A stretch of DNA of 57,846 nt from a virus (lineage: Duplodnaviria > Caudoviricetes). The translations under genes were made by a program, and so were the position numbers. The notes under the pieces were generated by a model. That model was not told the DNA's origin and did no database searches. It saw only the letters and a program-made list of their open reading frames with translations. The stretch spans positions 1 to 57,846 of IMG/VR virus record IMGVR_UViG_3300043394_000186, one strand, 5' to 3'. Below are positions 45,730-57,846 of this stretch, in pieces (the stretch's first letter is position 1; every line of letters starts with the position of its first letter).

Positions 45730-48700
45730 ATGAAGTTCGACATCAATGCAGCCCGCAGCTCCGGGTATTCCGACGACGAGATCGCGGACTACTTGGCAAA
45801 AGAAAACAAGTTTGATCTGAGCGGGGCGTTGAAGTCTGGCTACAGTGCGTCCGAGGTCATCGGCTTCCTGTCTGGTGCCGACGCGGCACCGGCAGCACCG
45901 GCGGAGGCGGTTACCGACACCGGTGACGAGGCCGCTCGCCTTGCAGCCCGGTACAAAGCGCCCGAAAAGCCCGGCTTCATCGAGCGTGCAGCCAGCGCCC
46001 TGTCGTCGATGCTGCCCAAGCCCGTGGACCCCATGGGCATCGCCTCCGGCAAACCGCTTGGCAACACGCAAATTCGGGCCGAGGAGCCCGTCAAAGAGCG
46101 CAAGGCACCTACCCCCTACCGCAACCGCCGCGAGGCGCTGGATGACGCTGTCAACCTGCTGGAAGAGGGCGCAGACCAGAAGGCCGTGACCGAGTCGTTC
46201 GCAAGCGCCGGGATTAAGTTCGACGAGATCGTCGCCCATGGTCAAAAGCGCGGCAGCGAATACTTCAAGCAGCAGCCCGGCATGGAGGTGGCTGACCCTG
46301 AGGTGGCCCGCCTTGCAGCGCGATACCCTGCGCAGCCCACCGGCGAACTCAAGGCGTACGAGACCAGCATTGGCGAGGACATTGCCAACTTCGCCAAGCG
46401 CGTGGCTGGCCGCTCGAGTCAGGCGTTCACCGGCCTGTTGGCCAACACCGGCGTGATCGACGAAGATCAGGCAGCCGCAGCGCTGGCGCGCGACGAGCGA
46501 CGCATTCAAGCGGCCCGTGCGCCTGAGTCCATTCAATCCGGGTTTGAGGAGATTGGCCAAGCCAAGACCTACGGCGACGCGGTGACTGCACTGGCCCGCA
46601 ACCCGGGCGCTACGGCCACCATGCTGGCTGAGTCTGTGCTGATGACGGCCCCTGTGCTGGCCGCTTCTGCAGCTCGCTTGCCAGCCGTTGGTTTGGCCGC
46701 CGCCACCGGCGGATTCTCCGCATCGCTCGAGTACGGCGGTGCCATGGCTGACGTGCTGTCCGAGCGCCGCATTGACATGCTCGACGCCAACAAGCTGGCG
46801 TCTGCCCTGAAAGACCCAGAGATCATTGCCGAGATCCGTGACAAGGGCACAAAGCGCGGCCTGACGATCGGCATCATCGACGGCCTGACCGCAGGCATTG
46901 CTGGCAAGTTCCTCGAGCCTGTCCAGAAGACCATCGCAGCAGGCAAGCTGGCGTCCGACGCCGCTCGCCGGGCAACCGTCGGCGCATGGGCCAAGGAGCT
47001 TGGCGCACAGGTCGCAGGCGGCTCCGGCGGCGAGTTCGCCGCTCAGCAACTGACCGGCGAGAACAAGCCAGCAGACGTGCTGCTCGAGGGCTTGGGCGAA
47101 GGCGTCTCGGCTCCGTTCGAGGCTCGCTCGAATCTGGCGGCATCTCGCAAGCTGGACCCGGCCCAGCAGATCGCCGACGCAATCTCTGGCGTGGACTTCA
47201 CCCAGTCCGGCATCGACGCGACTGTGGCCGACCGTGTGCGCACTGAAGGCATCTCTGACCAGATCAGCCCAGCCGCCACCGTTGCCAGCTTCACACCGGC
47301 CGACAGCCCCACCGCTCAGGCCGGGCTGGCTCCGATCGTGGTGCCTGTGCCCACCGCTGCACCAGAGGCAAACGAGCAGCCTCCCGTGCTGCCCGAGATC
47401 AACCCGTCGACCGAACAAGCCTTCGGCCTCGACACACTTCGCATGGGGACAACCAATGTCAGCACAACTGGCGCATCTGGAGCCGCGCCTGCAGTGGGCG
47501 GTGTCGCAGGGAGCGATCAGCTTGGCGGAAGCGTGGACCTTTCAGGACCTGATCTCACTGGCACCGGACAATTCGCTGGTGGAAGCGCCCGACAGCCTGC
47601 AGCCAATGATGGGCAGGATGTGGCTGTTGGAAGTGCCGCCATTCAACAGCCTGCCGGCGTAAGCGCCGCGCAAGATAACAATGCTGTAGCACCTCGCCTT
47701 GTCGAGCCATGGTTTGGCCGCAAAGGCGGTGGATACACAACGCTGGGCGACGCTGAGCAGGCAATGCCCGGCCGCAAGAGAATGTTCCCCGACCTCGAGT
47801 GGAAGGTAGAGGAAATGCCCAACGGCAAGTTCATGCTTGCTGGCTACGAAATCACCCAACAGGAGACGACCCTTGGCGCTCAAACCCCTCAAGCCATCCA
47901 AGGCCAAGCGCAAGGACAGCAAGCACCTGCCATCGCTGGAGCAGCAAGCCCAGCAATGGGTGAGCCAGTGGCGGTTCGAGGAGCTGCGCCGACGCAAGGC
48001 GGAGATGTCACTGGGTTCGGTGCAGTGGCGACAGGACCCGTCGCTGGACCTCGCGAAGCTGGAACCCTCACTACGCCAGAGGGTGCTTCAACTGCTGGAC
48101 TGACGGCATCGCTGCGCCTTGCCCCGCCCGCACCCGTGCGAGCCATCGGCAAGGCCATCACCACGTTGAGAGACAAGACAGGCGTTGAAGCAGAAGTCGA
48201 CAACGCACCTCTCACGGACAAGCAGCAGGCCGCAAGTGCCGTTGCCCGACTGCTTGGTCGAACCGTCACATACCTCAAGGCAGACACGCCTGCGTCTTTG
48301 CCCAACGGGTTCATGATCACTGGAGACTCGAAGAACATCTTCATCGCCAACGATGCCGAGGATTCCCCTCTGACTGTTGCGATGCACGAGATCTACCACA
48401 CGCTGCCCGATCAACAGCGCAAGGCCCTGAACACTCAGTTGGCCCAGTACTTCCGACAGGACCGCCGCACCGAGTTCGCAGTTGAATTTCAGTACGACTC
48501 GAAGAACGACGCGCTGCTGGACGAGGAGATCCCAGCGTTCATGGTCCAAGCGATAAGCAAGCGCGAGGACTTCTGGCAAGACCTGCGCACGAAGATGGGC
48601 AACGCAGAGTTTGGCGAGGTGGCCAAGGTCATCCTGACAAAGCTGAACTCGATCATCAGCGGCTCCAAGGAGCAGTACGGCGAAGAGTTCGTCAACAAGT

Positions 48701-51700
48701 ACATCACCGACGTGTCCAAGGCGCGCGACCTGTTGACCACGGCCTACGCCGAAGCCATGCAGGCGCAAGGCTTCAAGCCTGACGTCGCAGTCACCGGCGA
48801 CATGATGCCCTCGCAGCGCTCGCGCGTGGACATGAACTTCAAGGACGTCATCAAGCGCACGCCTGAGCTGCAGGCTGCGGCCGAGAAGGTCAAGGCTGGC
48901 GAGATGACCGCCGCTGAGTACGACACGCTGGTCAACGAGGCCAAGCCCGTGGAGCCGTACAAGTCGGTGCCTTCGCCGGCCACCGTCACCGACATCCAGA
49001 CCGCGCTGACGTCTGACAAGACCGAGCGCATTGGCAAGGCCAGCCAGTTGAAGGCAGGCCACCCAGTGGGCCTGCGACTGGACATTCCAGCCTACGCAAA
49101 CCACGGCACATGGGTCGTGTCGGTTCACGAGCAAGAGGCTGGCTACAACGCTGGCAAGTCCATCGGCTACGAGCCCGTGGCTGCGGCCACCAACGTCAAC
49201 TTCGGCGTGGTGGAGAAGGCTGCGATGAACATCGCAAGCGGCAAGCCGAAGGCCACGATCGCTGTGATGAAGGGCAACTGGAAACCAACGACGCCCAAGC
49301 AGGCCTACACCGCCGCGCAGGCAGCGCTCAAGTCCAAGGACTGGGTGCAGGTCGGCATGGACCCTGAGCGTCACTCCTACTTCTACGACCGCAAGACCAT
49401 GGAGCCCGTGGTGTCGGCCGACGAGGTCCTGCAAATCGGTCCTCTGGTGTTGGCGAAGAAGCCTGTGTTTGGCGACAAGGCTGACTTCATGTTCAGCAAC
49501 CGCGCCGCTCCTGAGACGCCTGAGTTCAAGAAGTTCTTTGCCGACTCAAAGGTTGTGGATGCCACTGGCAAGCCAATGGTGGTCTATCACGGGACAAGCA
49601 AAGAGTTCAGCACCTTTAGCCTTGGGTATCGAGGCGACGATCAGGGGAACGACCAATACGGTCCGGGCTACTACACCGCGTCAAGCGCCGAGACTGCTGG
49701 AGGTTACGCCAATGGCGACGGTGCAAACATCAAGCCGCTCTACGTCAGCATAAAGAACCCGATTGAAGAGGGGACAAAAGCCTTCCCTCGCTCGGTCATC
49801 GAGCGCCTCATGCGTGCATCGCCCAGTTTCTATGAATCACTCGAGAACTTCGGCGACATTTCGTTTGAGGGAGAGCGCAAGGTGGTGCGCGGTGCGGTCG
49901 ACGGCTTTGAGGGATTCGACAACGCGCTACTCCAGCTCGGCACGTTGCAGCGTGACTTCTGGCCAAATGATGCCGAAGGATTCTTGCGCGCGGCCAAGGA
50001 AATCACTGGCCACGACGGCGTGACAGTTGAAAGCGGTGGCAACAAGATCTTTGTTGCTTGGACGCCTGAGCAGATTAAGTCTGCCACCGGAAACGATGGC
50101 CAGTTCGATGGATCGAACCCAGACATCCGTCGCAGCAACCGCGCATACGAGGGCGCACCTGACTCCTTGATGGGCTTCAAAAAGAGCGGGCCTCAGACCG
50201 CTTACGAAGACTCCAGGTACAAGAAGGAGATCACGGTCCGCGTCACGTTCGATAACGGCAACTCGATGATCGACGGCATGAAGGGGTTGAACACCCCGCA
50301 CGCCATGGAGCGAGCACGCCGCAACTGGGGTGGCGCAAGAATTGAGCTGTTGGCCGAAGAGCCATACACCGATGATCTGGCTGCACGCTTTGAGGCACAG
50401 TCGTTTGAACCAAACGCCGACGTCATGCCACCAGAGCAGATCCGCGCAGACGGGATCATGTTCTCGCTGCGCAAGGTCGAGGAGATCAACGATGCGCCCG
50501 AGATCACGATGAAGGATCTGGTTGGCCAGACGGTGTTCCCGATCCTTGCCGACCTGACAGCCGCTGGCTACGTCTACATGGGCAAGGAACTGCGTGGCGG
50601 CCCGTACTACACGCTGCTGCCATCGAACTCCAAGGCTGGTCTGATATGGGCCAACGACGGCAAGGGCGTGGCCAGCATCAAGAACAAAAAGGCTGCACGC
50701 GGTGTGATCGGCTTGATCGTTGCGATGAAGCAAGACTCGCACGCGACCAACAACACGGTGGCCAACATCATCTTCCGCGCTGTCGAGGACGAGATTCAGA
50801 AGGGCTCTGTCGCCAAGGCAGACATTCCTAAGCTGGACGAGATCGTGCGTGGCCTTGCTACTCGCACCGCCACCAAGACCCGCAAGGTCGACGGCAAGAA
50901 GGTCAAAGAAACGAAGCAGGTGTTCCCGAAGTTCGCGGACTTCCCCGGCTTCAGCGACCGCGCTGCGTCCGAGAAGTTTCTGCGATCCATGCCATTCGAG
51001 GCACGCGGCCTGTTCTTCGAGGAGATGACCAAGCCCACCGTTGAAGACCTTGGTCTTGGCGTTGTGCGCAAGGTGATCAACGACACGGTCGAGCCAGACC
51101 TGCGTGGTCTGAACATGGGCGACGTGGTCATGGCCATCCGCTTTGATCCCAACGCTGACACGATCGAGCTGGGCGCGAAGACTGGCACGCCCGAGCACGA
51201 CTCCTACCGCTACGGCGTGAAGGGCGAAGTGATCGGAAAGTTCAAGCGTCCGATCTCGTTCGAAAACGTGTTCGTCGAACTTATGAAGGAGCGCCGTGCC
51301 GCCGGCAAGGATCGCCCTGCAGGCAACTACCGCTCGCTCACGCTGCGCAAGCCTGAACAATTGATCACTGAAGAGATCGCAGGCGGCGTCGGTCAGGAGA
51401 AGTACAAGACGTTCAAGACCCCGGCCGAGGCCAAGGCAGCCGTGGCTGCTGCAGCCATGGACTGGAAGGTCATCGACCGCCCCGCAGCCGCAGGCGTCAA
51501 GGAGTTCTTGCGCACGGCCCGCATCTACGGCGAAGGCAAAGTCCCATCGTTTGGCGAAGCCAAGATGCTGATCAAGGATGGGCGTCTGAGCATCTTCCGT
51601 TTGGCCAACACCGAGAGCTGGTTCTCGATCGAGAGCCGAGGCAACAAGCGTGTGATGACCAACGCCATGGTCGCGCAGCCGGGCGTTGAGCGCGACATGC

Positions 51701-54700
51701 TGTTTGGTGACATGGTGTTCCAAGCGCGCGCCAACGGTGCCACGCACATCGAAGAGGGCGGCAAGGTCGAGCCGATCACCGAGCAGAAGGCAATGCGCCG
51801 CGTTGCTCCGATCGTCAGCGAGTTGTCTGAGATGCCGGATGCCGACATCAAGAACTTGGGCATCGACCCCAAGGAAGTCGACCGCCTGAACGGGTTGATC
51901 GGTGAGGGCGAAGAGGAATTCTCGGCAGAAGCGCTGCCCGTCTACAGCAACCGGGCCAAGCCTGAGTTCTTCAGCCAGCTCGAGCGCACCATCGCCAACG
52001 TGCCTGCGAAGCTGGCGACGCAGCCTGCCTCCCAGTGGGCGCTGTGGCTGGACTCCAATGGCCCCAAGCAAGGCGTCAAGAAGGACGAGATGGAGTGGTC
52101 CGGCATCAAGGACTACCTCGCCCTGCGCGGCAAGGACAAGGTCACCAGCGCTGATCTTCAGGCCTACCTGAAGGACGGCGGCGTGCGCGTGGAAGAGACA
52201 ACGCTTGGCGCAGTCGACACCGACAAGATCCTCGACGACATCTCCAACGAGCTGTACGAGAAAGACTACTGGGACCTGAGCGCCAAGCAGCAGGACGTTG
52301 TTGTCGACAAGATGGACGAGCGCTACACGTCGCAGACCAAGTACGACAAGTACACACTGCCCGGTGGTGAAAACTACCGCGAGCTGCTGATCACGTTGCC
52401 GAGCAAGAACCCTGTTGCCGGGATCTCTCCTGTGCAAGCGGCCCGCGTCTTGTATGGCAAGGAGTATTCGACACTGACTTCTGAGCAGCAGGACGATGTC
52501 AAGCGGAAGATCGCTGACGACAAGTCTCCAACCTCCTATATGTCCAGCCATTGGCAGCAGCCCAACGTCCTCGCCCACATCCGCATCAACGACCGCACCG
52601 ATGCCGACGGCAACAAGGTTCTGTTTGTGGAAGAGGTGCAGTCCGACTGGGGTCAGGACGGGCTGAAGAAGGGCTTCAAGGGCAAGACACAAGAGGACGC
52701 TAAACGGTTCTTCGGCATCACCGATTCAGACTGGTCCAAGACCAGCGAGATGGACCGTGAGGCGTACCGAAACGAGATGCTTGATTCCAAGGGACGTGAC
52801 ATCATCCCCATCGCTCCGTTCGTCACCAAGACAGAAGGCTGGCTCAACCTTGCACTCAAGCGCATCGCCATGATGGCGGTGGAAGAGGGCTACGACAAGG
52901 TGGCCTTCGTCAATGGCCAGCAGTCTGCTGACCGTTACGACTTGAGCAAGTCGATCAGCTCGATCAGCTACGAGCCCGGCAGCAAGCCAGAGAACGCGGG
53001 CCTGCTGCAGGCTTGGGATCTGGACCGTCAGATGGTCATGAGCGAGATGGTCACCACCGACCGCATCGAGGACTACGTCGGCAAGGAAGTGGCTGTGCGT
53101 TTGCTCGAGACCGACAAGGTCATGGGCAAGCACATGCTCGACGGCGAGAACATCAAGGTCGGCGGCAAGGGCATGATCAAGTTCTACGACGAGATCGTCC
53201 CGCAAGCTATCACAAAGCTGTTGCCGAAACTGGGGGGCGAGAAGCTGGGCAAGGTTGGCATTGACGTCGGCCTGAACAGCAGCATGTCCTACGAAATCAA
53301 AGAGAAAGATGACGGGCGGTTTGCATTGCGGGCTCGCGCCGATGCCAACTCTCTTTGGGCTCCTTATGGCACCTATGACACCAAGGCGCTGGCGGAGCAG
53401 CGCATGTCTGAACTGAAGGCTGAATCCGAGGCCAGCGAGCAACCCGGCTTCGACGTCACCGACAAGATGCGCGAGACCGTGGGTCAGGGCCTGCCGATGT
53501 TCAGCAAGCGCGTACAGCCCACCGACTGGCGCGACGAAGCTGGCCGCGTCCGGTTCATGCCCGGTGCAGTGGCCTACCGCTATGCCGCCGACATCGCCAA
53601 CAAGCTGCTCGACAAGACCCCGCTGATCGGTTCGCTCAAGCCCATCGACAAGGACCTCGCGCTGGCCATGCGCCGCATGAAGGCCGAGATCGAGAACGCA
53701 CAGACCCGCACCGCTGGCGTGGCCTCCAAGTTGGGTGAGCTGCCAGAGGACGAGCGCAAGCTGATCAGCGACGTGATCGAGGGCGAACTCAAGCGCGGCG
53801 TGAAGCCCGCCAAGCGAGTGCTCGAGGTGGCTGCATCCATGCAGTCGATCATGTCCGAGCAGAGCGCTGAGCTGGTCCGTCTGGGCATGCTGACCTCCGA
53901 CGCAGCCAGCCGCTGGGACGGCAAGTACCTGCCACGCTTCTACGAGCAGACGCTCAAGAACGAAGCCAGCCAGTGGGCCAAGGCAGCCAAGGCATTGCTT
54001 GGCCGCAAGAAGACCATGCAGGGCATCAAGGGGTCCAATCTCAAGGGCCGTGGCATCTTCGAGACCATCCCCGTGGACGAGCTGGAAGCGTGGCTGGCCG
54101 AGGGCTGGGAAGAGCGCGATGCTAACTTCGACCCAGCCACCGACACCGAGATCACAGTCTGGCGCGACTACTCCCGTGCTGAGCGGGAGAACATGGGCGA
54201 GATCCGCGATGCCATGTTCCGCTTCGTCATGGGCTACATGAAGAGCCAGCGCGACGTGGCCCTTGGCCGCTTGTACGAGAACCTCGCCGACACGGTGGCC
54301 AGCAAGTCCGAGAAGGAAGGCTACGTGCAGGTGCCCAAGACCAACATCGAGGACACCACCGCCCGCCGCTACGGCAAGCTGTCTGGCAAGTGGGTGCCGC
54401 AAGAGGTGCTCGACCACCTGAGCGCATTCGACAGCAGCATGGAAGGCGACCTGCTCAAGGTCTACCGCAAGGCGCTGTCAATGTGGAAGGAAGGCAAGAC
54501 CGTGCTGAACCCGGTCGCGCACGCCAACAACGTGCTGTCCAACCTGACCATGGCCCACTTCGCTGGCGTGTCCTACTGGGACGCCAACAAGTACCTTGGT
54601 GCCGCAAGCGACATCGTCAAGGGCGCGCCGATGCTGGCCGAGGCACGCGAGGCTGGCCTGTTCGGTGGCACTGTGTCGCAGGCTGAGCTGGTAAGCATGC

Positions 54701-55917
54701 TGCCTGACCAGCTCAAGGTGCTGGCCGCCAAGACCGAGTCGAAGGTGGCCAAGGGTGTGGACACCGTGTGGAGTGCGATGTCGTTCTTCCTGCGCAAGCC
54801 TTTGGGCGTAGCGTACGAAGCCGAAGACCTGTACTTCCGCTACCTGATCTATCGAGACGCACGCGCCAAGGGCATGGAGCCTGAGAACGCTGTGACCTAT
54901 GCGCAGGAGTTCATCTTCACCTATGACGACCTGCCCAAGGGCGCACGCACGATCCGCGACGCACCGATCGGTATCCCGTTCTTCTCGTGGACCTACAAGG
55001 CGATCCCCATGATCGCCCGCACAGCGCTCGAGTACCCATGGCGCATGGCTGCCCCTGCGGCTGCCATGTACGCGGCCAACGCGGCCATGTATGCCATCGC
55101 TGCTGGCGCTGATGCAGGTGACGACGAGCCATGGTGGGAGGCGCTCAAGCGCTACGTCATGGACCCTGAGTTCCGCGATCAGGCCAAGCAGCTCGAGCAG
55201 CAGGAGCGCAAGAACCTCCCTGAGTGGCAGAAGGGCTTCAGCTCGATCGGCACGCCCAAGGCAATCCGTCTGGGCACCGATGACTTGACCAACCTGCCGC
55301 TGTTCTTGGACGTCAGCCGCATCTTCCCGGGCGGCGATCTGGGCGACTTCCACAACAATCTGGGGGGTGTGCCCCTGCCAGCATGGTTGACGCCAAATAA
55401 CCCTGTTCTGACCAGCCTGACGGCCTTCCTGCAGAACAAGGACTCGTTCACCGGCAAGGAGATCGTCAGCGCGAAGCTCGACACCGGCGGCGAGAAGTCA
55501 GCCAAGTGGGGCGAGTATGCGTGGCGTCAGTTCGCACCGGCCGTTGCTCCTTTCAACTACCACTTCGATCGCACGATGAATGCGGTGGCCAACGCCACCG
55601 GCACGACGATTGATCTGGGCGTGAAGGAGTACACCGGCGTGGACAAGATGGGCCAGCCTGTGCAGCCCAAGTACGCGGCCATGCAGACGTTCGGCCTCAA
55701 GGTCCGCCCGACAGACCTCGAGGTCTCCGAGCAGATCGAAGAGTCTCAGCGCAAGCAGTTGATCCGTGAACTCGACAAGCAGATCCGCCAGATCAAGCGC
55801 CTCGAGAACAAGGGCTACTACAGCGAGGAGAAGGCCGAGGCGATCACCGATCCGATCCGCGAGAAGCGTCAGCGCCTGAAGGAAGGCCTGACGATCACCG
55901 GCGAGGAGCGGGAATAA
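45730..55917 (+). CDS. Large polyvalent/internal virion protein (3395 aa)
   Basis: HEIYH zincin motif, ART-PolyVal-like SKVVD..GKPMVVYHGT module, LFVEEVQSDW module, LPD38-like C-terminus. Confidence 0.88.
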   Translation: MKFDINAARSSGYSDDEIADYLAKENKFDLSGALKSGYSASEVIGFLSGADAAPAAPAEAVTDTGDEAARLAARYKAPEKPGFIERAASALSSMLPKPVDPMGIASGKPLGNTQIRAEEPVKERKAPTPYRNRREALDDAVNLLEEGADQKAVTESFASAGIKFDEIVAHGQKRGSEYFKQQPGMEVADPEVARLAARYPAQPTGELKAYETSIGEDIANFAKRVAGRSSQAFTGLLANTGVIDEDQAAAALARDERRIQAARAPESIQSGFEEIGQAKTYGDAVTALARNPGATATMLAESVLMTAPVLAASAARLPAVGLAAATGGFSASLEYGGAMADVLSERRIDMLDANKLASALKDPEIIAEIRDKGTKRGLTIGIIDGLTAGIAGKFLEPVQKTIAAGKLASDAARRATVGAWAKELGAQVAGGSGGEFAAQQLTGENKPADVLLEGLGEGVSAPFEARSNLAASRKLDPAQQIADAISGVDFTQSGIDATVADRVRTEGISDQISPAATVASFTPADSPTAQAGLAPIVVPVPTAAPEANEQPPVLPEINPSTEQAFGLDTLRMGTTNVSTTGASGAAPAVGGVAGSDQLGGSVDLSGPDLTGTGQFAGGSARQPAANDGQDVAVGSAAIQQPAGVSAAQDNNAVAPRLVEPWFGRKGGGYTTLGDAEQAMPGRKRMFPDLEWKVEEMPNGKFMLAGYEITQQETTLGAQTPQAIQGQAQGQQAPAIAGAASPAMGEPVAVRGAAPTQGGDVTGFGAVATGPVAGPREAGTLTTPEGASTAGLTASLRLAPPAPVRAIGKAITTLRDKTGVEAEVDNAPLTDKQQAASAVARLLGRTVTYLKADTPASLPNGFMITGDSKNIFIANDAEDSPLTVAMHEIYHTLPDQQRKALNTQLAQYFRQDRRTEFAVEFQYDSKNDALLDEEIPAFMVQAISKREDFWQDLRTKMGNAEFGEVAKVILTKLNSIISGSKEQYGEEFVNKYITDVSKARDLLTTAYAEAMQAQGFKPDVAVTGDMMPSQRSRVDMNFKDVIKRTPELQAAAEKVKAGEMTAAEYDTLVNEAKPVEPYKSVPSPATVTDIQTALTSDKTERIGKASQLKAGHPVGLRLDIPAYANHGTWVVSVHEQEAGYNAGKSIGYEPVAAATNVNFGVVEKAAMNIASGKPKATIAVMKGNWKPTTPKQAYTAAQAALKSKDWVQVGMDPERHSYFYDRKTMEPVVSADEVLQIGPLVLAKKPVFGDKADFMFSNRAAPETPEFKKFFADSKVVDATGKPMVVYHGTSKEFSTFSLGYRGDDQGNDQYGPGYYTASSAETAGGYANGDGANIKPLYVSIKNPIEEGTKAFPRSVIERLMRASPSFYESLENFGDISFEGERKVVRGAVDGFEGFDNALLQLGTLQRDFWPNDAEGFLRAAKEITGHDGVTVESGGNKIFVAWTPEQIKSATGNDGQFDGSNPDIRRSNRAYEGAPDSLMGFKKSGPQTAYEDSRYKKEITVRVTFDNGNSMIDGMKGLNTPHAMERARRNWGGARIELLAEEPYTDDLAARFEAQSFEPNADVMPPEQIRADGIMFSLRKVEEINDAPEITMKDLVGQTVFPILADLTAAGYVYMGKELRGGPYYTLLPSNSKAGLIWANDGKGVASIKNKKAARGVIGLIVAMKQDSHATNNTVANIIFRAVEDEIQKGSVAKADIPKLDEIVRGLATRTATKTRKVDGKKVKETKQVFPKFADFPGFSDRAASEKFLRSMPFEARGLFFEEMTKPTVEDLGLGVVRKVINDTVEPDLRGLNMGDVVMAIRFDPNADTIELGAKTGTPEHDSYRYGVKGEVIGKFKRPISFENVFVELMKERRAAGKDRPAGNYRSLTLRKPEQLITEEIAGGVGQEKYKTFKTPAEAKAAVAAAAMDWKVIDRPAAAGVKEFLRTARIYGEGKVPSFGEAKMLIKDGRLSIFRLANTESWFSIESRGNKRVMTNAMVAQPGVERDMLFGDMVFQARANGATHIEEGGKVEPITEQKAMRRVAPIVSELSEMPDADIKNLGIDPKEVDRLNGLIGEGEEEFSAEALPVYSNRAKPEFFSQLERTIANVPAKLATQPASQWALWLDSNGPKQGVKKDEMEWSGIKDYLALRGKDKVTSADLQAYLKDGGVRVEETTLGAVDTDKILDDISNELYEKDYWDLSAKQQDVVVDKMDERYTSQTKYDKYTLPGGENYRELLITLPSKNPVAGISPVQAARVLYGKEYSTLTSEQQDDVKRKIADDKSPTSYMSSHWQQPNVLAHIRINDRTDADGNKVLFVEEVQSDWGQDGLKKGFKGKTQEDAKRFFGITDSDWSKTSEMDREAYRNEMLDSKGRDIIPIAPFVTKTEGWLNLALKRIAMMAVEEGYDKVAFVNGQQSADRYDLSKSISSISYEPGSKPENAGLLQAWDLDRQMVMSEMVTTDRIEDYVGKEVAVRLLETDKVMGKHMLDGENIKVGGKGMIKFYDEIVPQAITKLLPKLGGEKLGKVGIDVGLNSSMSYEIKEKDDGRFALRARADANSLWAPYGTYDTKALAEQRMSELKAESEASEQPGFDVTDKMRETVGQGLPMFSKRVQPTDWRDEAGRVRFMPGAVAYRYAADIANKLLDKTPLIGSLKPIDKDLALAMRRMKAEIENAQTRTAGVASKLGELPEDERKLISDVIEGELKRGVKPAKRVLEVAASMQSIMSEQSAELVRLGMLTSDAASRWDGKYLPRFYEQTLKNEASQWAKAAKALLGRKKTMQGIKGSNLKGRGIFETIPVDELEAWLAEGWEERDANFDPATDTEITVWRDYSRAERENMGEIRDAMFRFVMGYMKSQRDVALGRLYENLADTVASKSEKEGYVQVPKTNIEDTTARRYGKLSGKWVPQEVLDHLSAFDSSMEGDLLKVYRKALSMWKEGKTVLNPVAHANNVLSNLTMAHFAGVSYWDANKYLGAASDIVKGAPMLAEAREAGLFGGTVSQAELVSMLPDQLKVLAAKTESKVAKGVDTVWSAMSFFLRKPLGVAYEAEDLYFRYLIYRDARAKGMEPENAVTYAQEFIFTYDDLPKGARTIRDAPIGIPFFSWTYKAIPMIARTALEYPWRMAAPAAAMYAANAAMYAIAAGADAGDDEPWWEALKRYVMDPEFRDQAKQLEQQERKNLPEWQKGFSSIGTPKAIRLGTDDLTNLPLFLDVSRIFPGGDLGDFHNNLGGVPLPAWLTPNNPVLTSLTAFLQNKDSFTGKEIVSAKLDTGGEKSAKWGEYAWRQFAPAVAPFNYHFDRTMNAVANATGTTIDLGVKEYTGVDKMGQPVQPKYAAMQTFGLKVRPTDLEVSEQIEESQRKQLIRELDKQIRQIKRLENKGYYSEEKAEAITDPIREKRQRLKEGLTITGEERE
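47456..47662 (+). CDS. Nested gene 1 (68 aa) in the +1 frame of the polyvalent gene
   Basis: GGGGA RBS, ATG, strongly G/C-ending codons in this frame. Confidence 0.6.
   Translation: MSAQLAHLEPRLQWAVSQGAISLAEAWTFQDLISLAPDNSLVEAPDSLQPMMGRMWLLEVPPFNSLPA
47873..48103 (+). CDS. Nested gene 2 (76 aa) in the +1 frame of the polyvalent gene
   Basis: AGGAG RBS 7 nt before TTG; G/C-ending codons in this frame. Confidence 0.55.
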   Translation: MALKPLKPSKAKRKDSKHLPSLEQQAQQWVSQWRFEELRRRKAEMSLGSVQWRQDPSLDLAKLEPSLRQRVLQLLD

Positions 55918-55943
55918 GAAAGGGGGCCAAGGCCCCCTTCTTT
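55916..55943. terminator. Bidirectional terminator between converging genes
   Basis: AAGAAAGGGGGCC-AA-GGCCCCCTTCTTT. Confidence 0.85.
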
Positions 55944-56529
55944 ACACGAACTCGCGAAGGTTCGGTGGCTTCCAGCCTTCCGGCTTTCCGATCTTGCCGC
56001 CCTCGAGGATGACGGGCTTGCCATCCACCAGCTTGGCGTCGTTGGATGCGAGCACCACGACGTCGGCTGCGGGCTTGTTGAAGCCCGCCAAGTAGGCCAC
56101 GCCGTTGCCGGTCACGTCGGTGTCGCACAGGGCGTCCAGTGCGTCGTCGCGCAGGTGCGTCGGGATGTAGACGAACTGCTCGCGGCGCTTGAGCTTGCTG
56201 CCAAACCACTCGAGGTCATTGCAGGTCCGCTCCAGCAGCTTGGCGTAGCCCTCGCTGTCGGTGCGCAGGGTGCGCAGGAACTCGCAGAACTCCTCGATGT
56301 GGCACCCGACCTGCAGGCTCAGGTTTTCTGGGGTGGGCTCCTTGCCGCAGGCCTTGAGCCAGCGGGCGGTGCGGTCGAAGTTGGTCAGGTGCTCGCGCTG
56401 CAGACCATGCACGGCGCTGACCGCCATCTGGTGCGCACCGCTGGTCTCTTGGCCACCTTCGTCTCCGAAGTTCATGCTGATCTTGACCTCGTCGCCCTCG
56501 TCTTCAAATGTCACTGTTGCCTTGCTCAT
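55942..56529 (-). CDS. MazG-like (PRA-PH family) NTP pyrophosphohydrolase
   Basis: IEEFCEF, ALDALCD, SNDAK, GKIGKPEGWKPPNL. Confidence 0.82.
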   Translation of the reverse strand: MSKATVTFEDEGDEVKISMNFGDEGGQETSGAHQMAVSAVHGLQREHLTNFDRTARWLKACGKEPTPENLSLQVGCHIEEFCEFLRTLRTDSEGYAKLLERTCNDLEWFGSKLKRREQFVYIPTHLRDDALDALCDTDVTGNGVAYLAGFNKPAADVVVLASNDAKLVDGKPVILEGGKIGKPEGWKPPNLREFV

Positions 56530-56834
56530 GCCTCACCTCCCTCTGTGTCGATCGACTTGGCCCGTTGCCACTTGGGCAGGATCGGGTAGCGTTTGCCGTC
56601 GTGGTCGACCAGCCATGGCTCGGTGACCTCGTCGTTGCGAATGACGGTGCAGCCGTGGATCGACTCAGGCTCGAAGCCGGGTTCAACCCCCAGCTCGGTG
56701 CGCAGCTCTTCCATCCACCAGCCCGGGGCGGCGATGACCGGCAGCAGGGTCTCGCTCCACTTTTCGGGTGGGATCATTTCCTTCAGCGCCTGCAGCGAGT
56801 GCTGCACGTTGGCGATTGCGTAGGTTGTGCTCAT
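56526..56834 (-). CDS. Hypothetical protein
   Basis: ATG 56834 after a promoter; ATGA coupling to the MazG-like gene. Confidence 0.75.
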   Translation of the reverse strand: MSTTYAIANVQHSLQALKEMIPPEKWSETLLPVIAAPGWWMEELRTELGVEPGFEPESIHGCTVIRNDEVTEPWLVDHDGKRYPILPKWQRAKSIDTEGGEA

Positions 56835-56861
56835 TCCATTTTCTCTCTTTCTGTTGGTTGA

Positions 56862-56906
56862 AATATAAGCATTGTGATTATACGGCGTCCAATACTGCGC
56901 CGTCAC
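56862..56906 (-). promoter_or_regulatory. Promoter with TCACAATG box
   Basis: TATAAT (56877-82) and TATATT (56862-67) candidate -10 boxes flank the box at 56870-56879. Confidence 0.6.
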
Positions 56907-57090
56907 AAGTGAAAACACCGATCGCCAATAGGGGCCAGACGACTGTGTGAATTGGACGTGATATGTGCATTTCGTCAGCCAGATCAAGACCTTGCGCATC
57001 ACAATGCAAATACTGCTGCATTACCGGCGTGTGCCCGCCAAGCCAGTGTTCATGCGGTTCTTGGTTCGCTGTCAATTGGACTGTCCAAAA
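56880..57090. other. attP region with mutS-like core and arm-type repeats
   Basis: Directly downstream of int; GTCCAA/TTGGAC repeats at 56887, 56952, 57076, 57083; 57033-57007 (minus) encodes HTPVMQQYL. Confidence 0.75.
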
Positions 57091-57846
57091 CTCGGGCCAT
57101 GCACTACCGGCGTCTCGCGGTCTCGAAGGTAGCGGCTGGTCATGGCTGTGCTGGCGTGCCCAAGCAGTGCGGTGGCGTCCTTGCCTTGCTTCTTGGCGTT
57201 GGTCGCGGACATCGCACGGATGTCGCGCATCGTGGTGTCGGCGATGCCAGCCTTGGCGCAGGCGGCGTCCCACTGATCACGCACCGTCCGGTACGCTGGT
57301 GCCCCTCCGAGTCTGGTCCTGAACAGGGTCATGCCGTTGACCTTGCCGCCGACCGCTTTTGCCTGCTCGATGGCGGCACGCAGCTCGGGGGTCCATGCCA
57401 CCAGCAGTTTGGCGTCAGTCTTCTCTTGCCTGAAGTAGACCCCCTCCTCTCGGATAGCCGATCGCGGGAGGGTCGCAACGTCCATGATGCGCTGGCCGGT
57501 GAGGTAGGCGATGTCCATCATGAGCTGCAGTCTTAGCGCGGCCTTCGCACGGATCTTGAAGAACTCCTCGTGCTCAATCAGCCGGTCTCGCCTCTTCTCG
57601 CGCAGACGGTAGACGCCTGTGCATGGGTTGCTGTCAACGATGCCGTGCTTGACGGCGTAGGTGAACACCAAACGCAGCACGCTCAAGCACCGGTTGGCCA
57701 TGTTGGGTGTACTGGATAGCCCCTCCTGCATGGCGTAGACGGTGCTCTGCTTGACTTGATGGGGCGCGAACTCCTCGAAGATGCCCTGCAGCTTTCGCAC
57801 CGCGATCATGTACTGCCGTGCCGTCGATGCCTTGACGTCGCGTGTG
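57072..57846 (-). CDS. int: Tyrosine integrase, 3' part (catalytic domain)
   Basis: TGQRIMD (R), QEKT (K), RDIR (H-x-x-R variant), LLGH, RYL (Y) motifs. Confidence 0.93.
   Translation of the reverse strand, partial: TRDVKASTARQYMIAVRKLQGIFEEFAPHQVKQSTVYAMQEGLSSTPNMANRCLSVLRLVFTYAVKHGIVDSNPCTGVYRLREKRRDRLIEHEEFFKIRAKAALRLQLMMDIAYLTGQRIMDVATLPRSAIREEGVYFRQEKTDAKLLVAWTPELRAAIEQAKAVGGKVNGMTLFRTRLGGAPAYRTVRDQWDAACAKAGIADTTMRDIRAMSATNAKKQGKDATALLGHASTAMTSRYLRDRETPVVHGPSFGQSN
57649..57846. repeat. Terminal direct repeat, right copy
   Basis: Matches 1-198 with one mismatch. Confidence 0.97.

Follow-up and report, generated by a model that had tools for sequence, protein, structure and literature searches.

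The DNA that follows the integrase gene in this viral genome very probably acts as the attP of a temperate phage whose integrase recombines at the HTP codons of the host mutS gene, and whose own start would then rebuild the gene that it interrupts. Two components of this reading are well supported by comparison with related sites, namely that the stretch would be an attP with the HTP(M/V)MQQ codons of mutS as its core and that it would supply mutS with a rebuilt N-terminus. The likeliest consequence is that the spare start keeps the host repair-proficient, and a phage that spares its host in this way could use a highly conserved target without cost to that host.

The phage genome and its integrase

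Throughout, the window refers to the whole stretch of DNA that was analysed, which is 57,846 nucleotides long. Because bases 1-198 repeat bases 57649-57846 with one mismatch, we regard the genome as complete and circularly permuted, with 57,648 bases (57.6 kb). The window contains PHROGs matches to the large terminase, portal/adaptor, major head protein, primase and helicase, and judged by its sequence it is a real temperate phage genome in its free (attP) form. The two repeat copies differ at position 71 versus position 57719 (T versus G), a difference that changes the integrase by one residue (QEG-SSTP, I versus L) and that suggests either two variants in the sample or assembly from a concatemer. 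A nucleotide search with 56800-57846 gave no match among deposited phages.

The same terminal repeat means that the integrase gene (int) wraps around the permuted end of the window. Its C-terminal part, 257 codons plus the stop, occupies 57072-57846 on the minus strand, and its N-terminal part, an open reading frame (ORF) that begins MRQRKQNRHLP and matches the N-termini of relatives, occupies 1-392 on the same strand with its ATG at 392-390, giving 322 amino acids in all. The product is a tyrosine recombinase of the phage integrase family (Pfam PF00589, E = 2.2e-13). Residues R119, R210, H230 and Y239 are invariant in seven aligned integrase relatives, and we take these to be the catalytic Arg, Arg and His and the Tyr nucleophile of tyrosine recombinases. 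Overlapping the int start, also on the minus strand, is a DUF4224 gene (289-609; PF13986, E = 2.6e-11), and that it encodes an excisionase is a guess.

Just inside attP on its other side lie two phage genes on the minus strand (55942-56834). One is a 102-amino-acid (aa) ORF of no known family, and the other encodes a 195-aa nucleotide pyrophosphohydrolase (phrog_671, E = 6.5e-24); a Pfam search with both of these genes and with the 65-aa open frame described below found no family. In the P' arm (56862-56906, minus strand), a promoter scan found two overlapping sigma-70-like matches that face these two genes, compared with a mean of 0.3 in shuffles. The largest gene of the phage by far is a single ORF of 3,395 aa on the plus strand (45730-55917); it converges on the attP-side genes, and a terminator-like hairpin with a T-run lies between them near 55920-55945.

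The attP core and its match to mutS

On the minus strand, two bases of a TTG at 57075-57073 also belong to the int stop codon (TGA, 57074-57072), forming TTGA, and this TTG opens MTANQEPHEHWLGGHTPVMQQYL. The resulting frame reads M-TANQEPHEHWLGG-HTPVMQQYL-HCDAQ and onward to a stop at 56880-56878, and it shows no likeness to MutS after HTPVMQQYL, whose H codon is at 57033-57031 and whose L codon is at 57009-57007. The int stop lies 38 nt before the H codon, while the TTG lies 14 codons before it with no stop between and is the sole in-frame start within 25 codons upstream of HTP. The segment 57007-57075 (MTANQEPHEHWLGG plus HTPVMQQYL, minus strand) would thus be a phage-borne replacement for the 5' end of mutS, and 56878-57006 on the same strand forms the phage-side tail of the open frame. 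The first-pass annotation of this DNA, which was made from the letters and a list of ORFs, had described both the overlap of the TTG with the int stop and the frame leading into HTPVMQQYL, and both can be read directly from the minus strand and the ORF list.

That annotation had also proposed that mutS codons form the core of attP, and it had expected a nucleotide match to the 5' ends of bacterial mutS genes. Such a match exists, and the cores of relatives agree with it: an exact run of 24 nt (57034-57011, minus strand), which we treat as the att core, is identical between the window and the native mutS 5' ends at loci L108, L113 and L116, and the flanks are unrelated on both sides. Native mutS starts that share this core include MSAAEHTPVMQQYLRIK and others, and native 5' ends matching it carry the Pfam domain MutS_I. 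The window core has GTA (V) where most mutS-type cores have ATG (M), which fits hosts with HTPVMQQ. A scan of metagenome contigs for an exact 20-nt V-type core gave 16 loci. Five of them look native (L108, L111, L113, L116 and L121), with mutS starts of the form HTPVMQQYL(R/G)(I/L)K and no arm motifs upstream; three are of attR type (L107, L110 and L117), in which arm motifs are followed by the core and then by the mutS body; and three are of attP type or have no mutS following (L119, and L106 with L114). The remaining loci are ambiguous (L109, L115), unrelated (L112, L120) or from a different MutS lineage (L118). The exact 27-nt window core had no match in viral contigs, and the exact V-type core was absent from 401 genomes sampled from the phylum of G001, one of the four genomes with integrated relatives described below.

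Around the core, the window carries four short motifs that we consider putative integrase arm sites, all given here on the minus strand. Two stand before it: TTTGGACA at 57082-57089, which is 56 nt before the H codon and within the last int codons, and AATTGACA at 57070-57077, which is 44 nt before the H codon and holds both the TTG and the int stop. Two stand in the P' arm after it: CGTCCAAT, inverted, at 56951-56958 (75 nt after the H codon), and ATTGGACG, direct, at 56886-56893 (140 nt after). These positions (-56, -44, +75 inverted and +140) are those of the motifs in relatives, where most of 58 non-identical core sites have WWTDGACR at -67/-56 and -45/-44 relative to the H codon, and attP-type sites alone have it again on the other side, inverted at +73 to +76 and direct at +138 to +143. 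Two arm motifs before the core, with one inverted and one direct after it, make up what we take to be the lambda-type attP layout, and by its spaced putative arm motifs the window integrase fits the heterobivalent (lambda-type) class. Strand exchange would occur in the (G/A)TnATGCAGCA part of the window core.

The resemblance to MutS covers only nine residues, and it could be argued that these codons are a chance likeness, or a scrap of host mutS left by faulty excision, with no role in integration. We find this hardly credible at all, since the codons keep a constant spacing to the arm motifs even in relatives with as little as about 42% integrase identity, and since the inserted elements in four genomes are flanked by direct repeats of the core.

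The association between integrase and core was examined among viral relatives at two depths. A first integrase scan of viral contigs gave seven loci with 49-82% identity; six of the seven have HTP(M/V/I)MQ-type codons, oriented as int is, at 7-70 nt beyond the int stop, and in the seventh the nucleotide core lies 568 nt further on. A wider scan, made with an alignment of the first-scan integrases, kept 80 loci with 42-82% identity. The amino acid motif lies near the int stop in 35 of these, the exact nucleotide core is found within 1.2 kb in 13 more, and two further loci match the core with 2 and 3 mismatches. Eleven of the 80 loci end at int with no DNA beyond, and at least 21 of the 69 that do have DNA after int lack an exact core within 1.2 kb of the stop; the core lies further downstream in six of the latter, and several carry a different one. 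At six IMG/VR loci (L070, L071, L074, L079, L088 and L102) a mutS-type core lies 0.8-1.1 kb after int, so that one or more genes would stand between int and the rebuilt start.

Several loci carry the same arm-type motifs around another core. In four of the integrase relatives (L057, L058, L092 and L127) the same arm motifs surround a different core that contains GTACTCGG, and in Bordetella phage vB_BbrS_PHB09 this core corresponds to the published 14-bp pilin-gene site. The integrase of PHB09 is 41% identical to that of the window phage and its gene is likewise followed by arm-type motifs; the available part of the PHB09 report describes experiments in which the phage integrates site-specifically at the 14-bp site and disrupts the pilin gene (PMC7010805). 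PHB09 thus represents a sister specificity and not a mutS integrase. The shared core implies that the clade has changed target between the starts of two conserved genes, and given both the loci that lack a mutS-type core and the pilin-gene site of PHB09, integrase likeness alone does not fix the target. At one further IMG/VR locus (L072, integrase 49% identical) the P' arm is very like that of the window (CACGTCCAATTCACA, TTTTCACTTGTGAC) and the core is unrelated to mutS, which suggests that the core was swapped between otherwise related attP regions.

Integrated relatives and the spare start for mutS

An integrase scan of bacterial and archaeal genomes returned seven loci, all bacterial. At five of them (L008, L010, L011, L012 and L013) mutS stands directly behind int on the same strand, and the ORF at L011 spans MutS domains I to V. 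Of the other two, L009 shows the free attP form and L014 is truncated by a contig end. In the four genomes to which these loci belong (G001-G004) a 20-nt core occurs twice in direct orientation, with the copies 18.4 kb (G001), 18.1 kb (G002) and 11.2 kb (G003) apart and, in G004, on two contigs. In all four, copy A follows host DNA and a native start (MDIPSSATSAHTPMM, MNDSALPRHTPMM, MDNSALTDHTPMM or MDSARIHTPMM) and leads into a short tail with a stop, which leaves a short orphan ORF at attL. Copy B is preceded by int and the arm motifs (for example, MNDKVDRHTPMMQQYLRIK); an in-frame TTG stands 7-14 codons upstream of its HTP, and its frame continues into the mutS body (QQYLRIK, then FYRMGDFYELF). 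Base differences between attL and attR in these genomes point to strand exchange within ATGATGCAGCA.

The first-pass annotation had held that the phage separates mutS from its promoter and rebuilds the gene behind int, and it had looked ahead to prophages with such an integrase inside mutS and to their junctions. In the four genomes with related integrases, both the arrangement and its junctions are present. The collections searched held no integrated copy of the window phage, so we infer its integration at mutS from its attP and from these relatives. Contigs from four runs, one of them probably the run from which this DNA comes, contained over 56600-57500 the attP form only and no joints, although contigs cannot show rare junctions; they covered the whole of 56600-57500 in X1, 56887-57146 in X4 and 56918-57088 in X5.

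By analogy with these relatives, the integrase of the window phage would belong to a clade that recombines at HTP(M/V)MQQ codons, a few codons past the mutS start. The promoter, start and first codons native to mutS would remain at the distal prophage end, where they would form a short dead-end ORF in which the phage tail at 56878-57006 would follow the orphaned native start and end the frame at 56880-56878, as happens at attL in G001-G004. The mutS body would be joined directly behind int, as it is in the relatives, and the phage would supply the in-frame TTG and 14 new N-terminal residues, so that a full-length MutS could still be made. In a lysogen, the 102-aa and pyrophosphohydrolase genes would come to lie downstream of the host mutS promoter.

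The condition of mutS behind the integrated relatives varies. G003 and G004 have intact genes, of 873 and 870 aa, and that of G001 is frameshifted. In the latter genome, locus L010 (G001:C1, about 850,850-853,400) shows full-length mutS homology behind the 18.4-kb element with three frame changes, while rpoC is intact at 1,403 aa; the shifts may reflect either real decay of mutS in the lysogen or a local assembly error. In G002, mutS contains many frameshifts, and because rpoC is also split in that genome, these breaks are likely to be assembly errors.

We next considered whether relatives carry a start of their own ahead of the core. Core sites were sorted into 37 clusters that share less than 75% identity with one another across the 60 nt preceding the core. 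In 36 of the 37 (the exception is L106), a potential in-frame start codon (ATG, GTG or TTG) stands 3-25 codons upstream of H and no stop intervenes, whereas the two control frames, read likewise, were open with a start in only 8 and 5 clusters. This difference points to selection for retaining the element-borne start. Many clusters have an ATG 5-6 codons upstream of HTP and encode native-like peptides such as MSSLSDHTP, MNDLSQHTP and MTDLSSHTP. A second option offered by the first-pass annotation, a mini-ORF whose stop overlaps an ATG, is present in the window as it had stated (ATG at 57053-57051, MNTGLAGTRR, TAA at 57023-57021, sharing one A with the ATG at 57021-57019). We rejected it as a conserved coupling device: it is found only in the window's own cluster (including L001/L026), and its control frame is open with a start in 5 of the 37 clusters.

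These results bear on the idea that integration inactivates mutS, such that the phage codons would be an untranslated half-site and every lysogen a constitutive mutator. The frameshifted mutS of G001 alongside an intact rpoC would fit this idea, as would the disruption of the pilin target by the sister integrase of PHB09 (in the available part of PMC7010805) and the nature of the window's start, a TTG inside an arm motif. Nonetheless, we judge inactivation very unlikely, given the open frame with a start in nearly all clusters compared with the control frames, the many clusters with a nearby ATG and native-like peptides, the intact genes of G003 and G004, and the working repair of the published Vibrio lysogen (PMC5296598, in the part available).

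How the rebuilt gene would be translated is a separate matter. We read the window's TTG as a probably weak start, with no clear ribosome-binding site before it, and translation from an ATG inside the motif is possible. Since TTGACA is also part of the arm motif, its conservation need not mean that it serves as a start codon. We rejected TTGACA (57075-57070) as a -35 box, as there is no acceptable -10 at 16-18 nt and the promoter scan is empty there.

The candidate start is closely tied to int. In the window and L011 it shares bases with the int stop (TTGA), as an ATG does in L009 and L041 (ATGA), and in some other clusters it lies inside the 3' end of int. A sigma-70-like match occurs in the 200 nt before HTP in just 2 of the 37 clusters, compared with 2.0 expected from shuffles, and in the window the scan found no promoter match in 57072-57846, in the stretch from int to the core or in 1-1300; since the scan uses one consensus only, a missing match is weak evidence. 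With no promoter match and a start that overlaps or lies inside int, co-transcription with int is the simplest reading, and we infer that the rebuilt mutS would be transcribed from the int message.

This raises the potential for a regulated mutator switch, as the first-pass annotation had suggested, in which integrated mutS lacks its own promoter and is made only from the int message, so that repair follows prophage state or excision. The position of the start at or inside the end of int and the scarcity of promoter matches would fit such a switch, and the same possibility is raised in the discussion of Chu et al. (PMC5296598, in the part available). However, according to the same source, V. 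splendidus 12B01 is repair-proficient with its element integrated and became hypermutable only through a scarred excision, and excision left mutS intact in E. coli 536, P. putida F1 and B. multivorans CF2. Moreover, an in-frame start under selection would fit the maintenance of working MutS equally well, and the promoter scan carries the limits given above. We therefore think a switch of this kind rather unlikely, and we would say the same of its most specific form, in which MutS synthesis in the lysogen would be tied to the transcription and translation of int and repair would follow prophage state without an excision scar. If MutS levels do follow int expression, lysogeny would tune the mutation rate of the host. 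Our preferred reading remains that the phage start rebuilds mutS and leaves repair working.

Comparison with known systems

Integration at the start of mutS with a spare start is already described by Chu et al. 2017, in the part of that paper available (mBio 8:e02045-16, PMC5296598). They report a 27-kb element in the mutS start of Vibrio splendidus 12B01 that provides the gene with a new start and a new upstream region; the element is lost by excision in about 1 in 10,000 genomes, and while the integrated state gives functional MutS, excision leaves a 2-bp deletion and a hypermutator. Their screen, which called for an integrase within 300 bp of mutS, found putative elements, prophages among them, that range from 4 to >150 kb and occupy the HTPMMQQ codons of mutS in hundreds of Beta- and Gammaproteobacteria. 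Excision was shown by PCR in V. splendidus 12B01, E. coli 536, P. putida F1 and B. multivorans CF2, was scar-free in the last three, and is suggested to switch mutS between two regulatory regions (PMC5296598). A full-text literature search for HTPMMQQ found this paper alone.

In E. coli 536, two core sites lie 14.8 kb apart, with an orphan frame (MSTIENFDAHTPMMH, ending in a stop) at one and the rebuilt gene (MSTPENFDAHTPMMQQYL) at the other. There, mutS is adjoined only by a 249-aa DUF4102 protein on the opposite strand, and DUF4102 is presumably the N-terminal domain of P4-type integrases. The integrase type and its orientation differ from those of the window's clade. We rejected this element as a direct relative, as its one weak match to the window integrase (33%, E = 1e-6) lies far from mutS, and the lack of a close relative of the window integrase there implies that more than one integrase type uses the mutS target. 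The element (L125, 2,835,157-2,849,973) carries IS elements along with a gene for a reverse transcriptase and a hypothetical gene of 1,283 aa.

Deposited phages with related integrases show parts of the same arrangement. In Pseudomonas phage phiAH14a (KU708004; integrase 44.6% identical), int is followed by arm motifs and then by ATG-MTDLSS-HTPMMQQ; the main text of its paper (PMC4936722) contains no mention of mutS, attP, attB or an integration site. Pseudomonas phage F_TK1718sp/PAK (KM389229; integrase 39.9% identical) has an in-frame ATG (MNKPNTDIAQHTPMMQQ) and a mutS-type core, and no arm motif scored in it. Both are different phages, with no nucleotide likeness to the window.

Other mobile elements also sit at the 5' ends of conserved genes. 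SXT/R391 ICEs, as Hochhut and Waldor are said to have reported in 1999, insert at the 5' end of prfC and bring a new promoter and N-terminus, so that the gene stays functional; these are conjugative elements that differ from the window phage in both integrase and target gene. A Burkholderia gladioli prophage has been reported, in a source available in part, as "adjacent to MutS". In Streptococcus pyogenes, the phage-like SpyCIM1 likewise lies at the 5' end of a gene for mismatch repair, and the mutation rate there depends on its integration state: in the available parts of the two sources, its integration blocks mutL transcription and its excision restores repair (PMC3430984, PMC5296598). For SpyCIM1 the integrated state therefore means repair off, whereas the window phage would rebuild its target gene and its integrated state is expected to be repair-proficient.

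The closest parallel remains the elements of Chu et al. (PMC5296598, in the part available), which, like the window phage, bear an integrase, have HTPMMQQ-type codons as att core and carry a new start. In those elements the native mutS start is orphaned at one end, as it is in the relatives in G001-G004 and as we would expect for the window phage. They differ in that they are inserts, whereas the window phage is a free 57.6-kb attP form from a freshwater metagenome. To the published picture, our analysis adds anatomy, in the form of fixed arm-motif distances, a start that merges with the int stop, and sister integrases directed at other sites. The free phage form would represent a virus that lands in the most conserved codons of a repair gene and leaves that gene usable.
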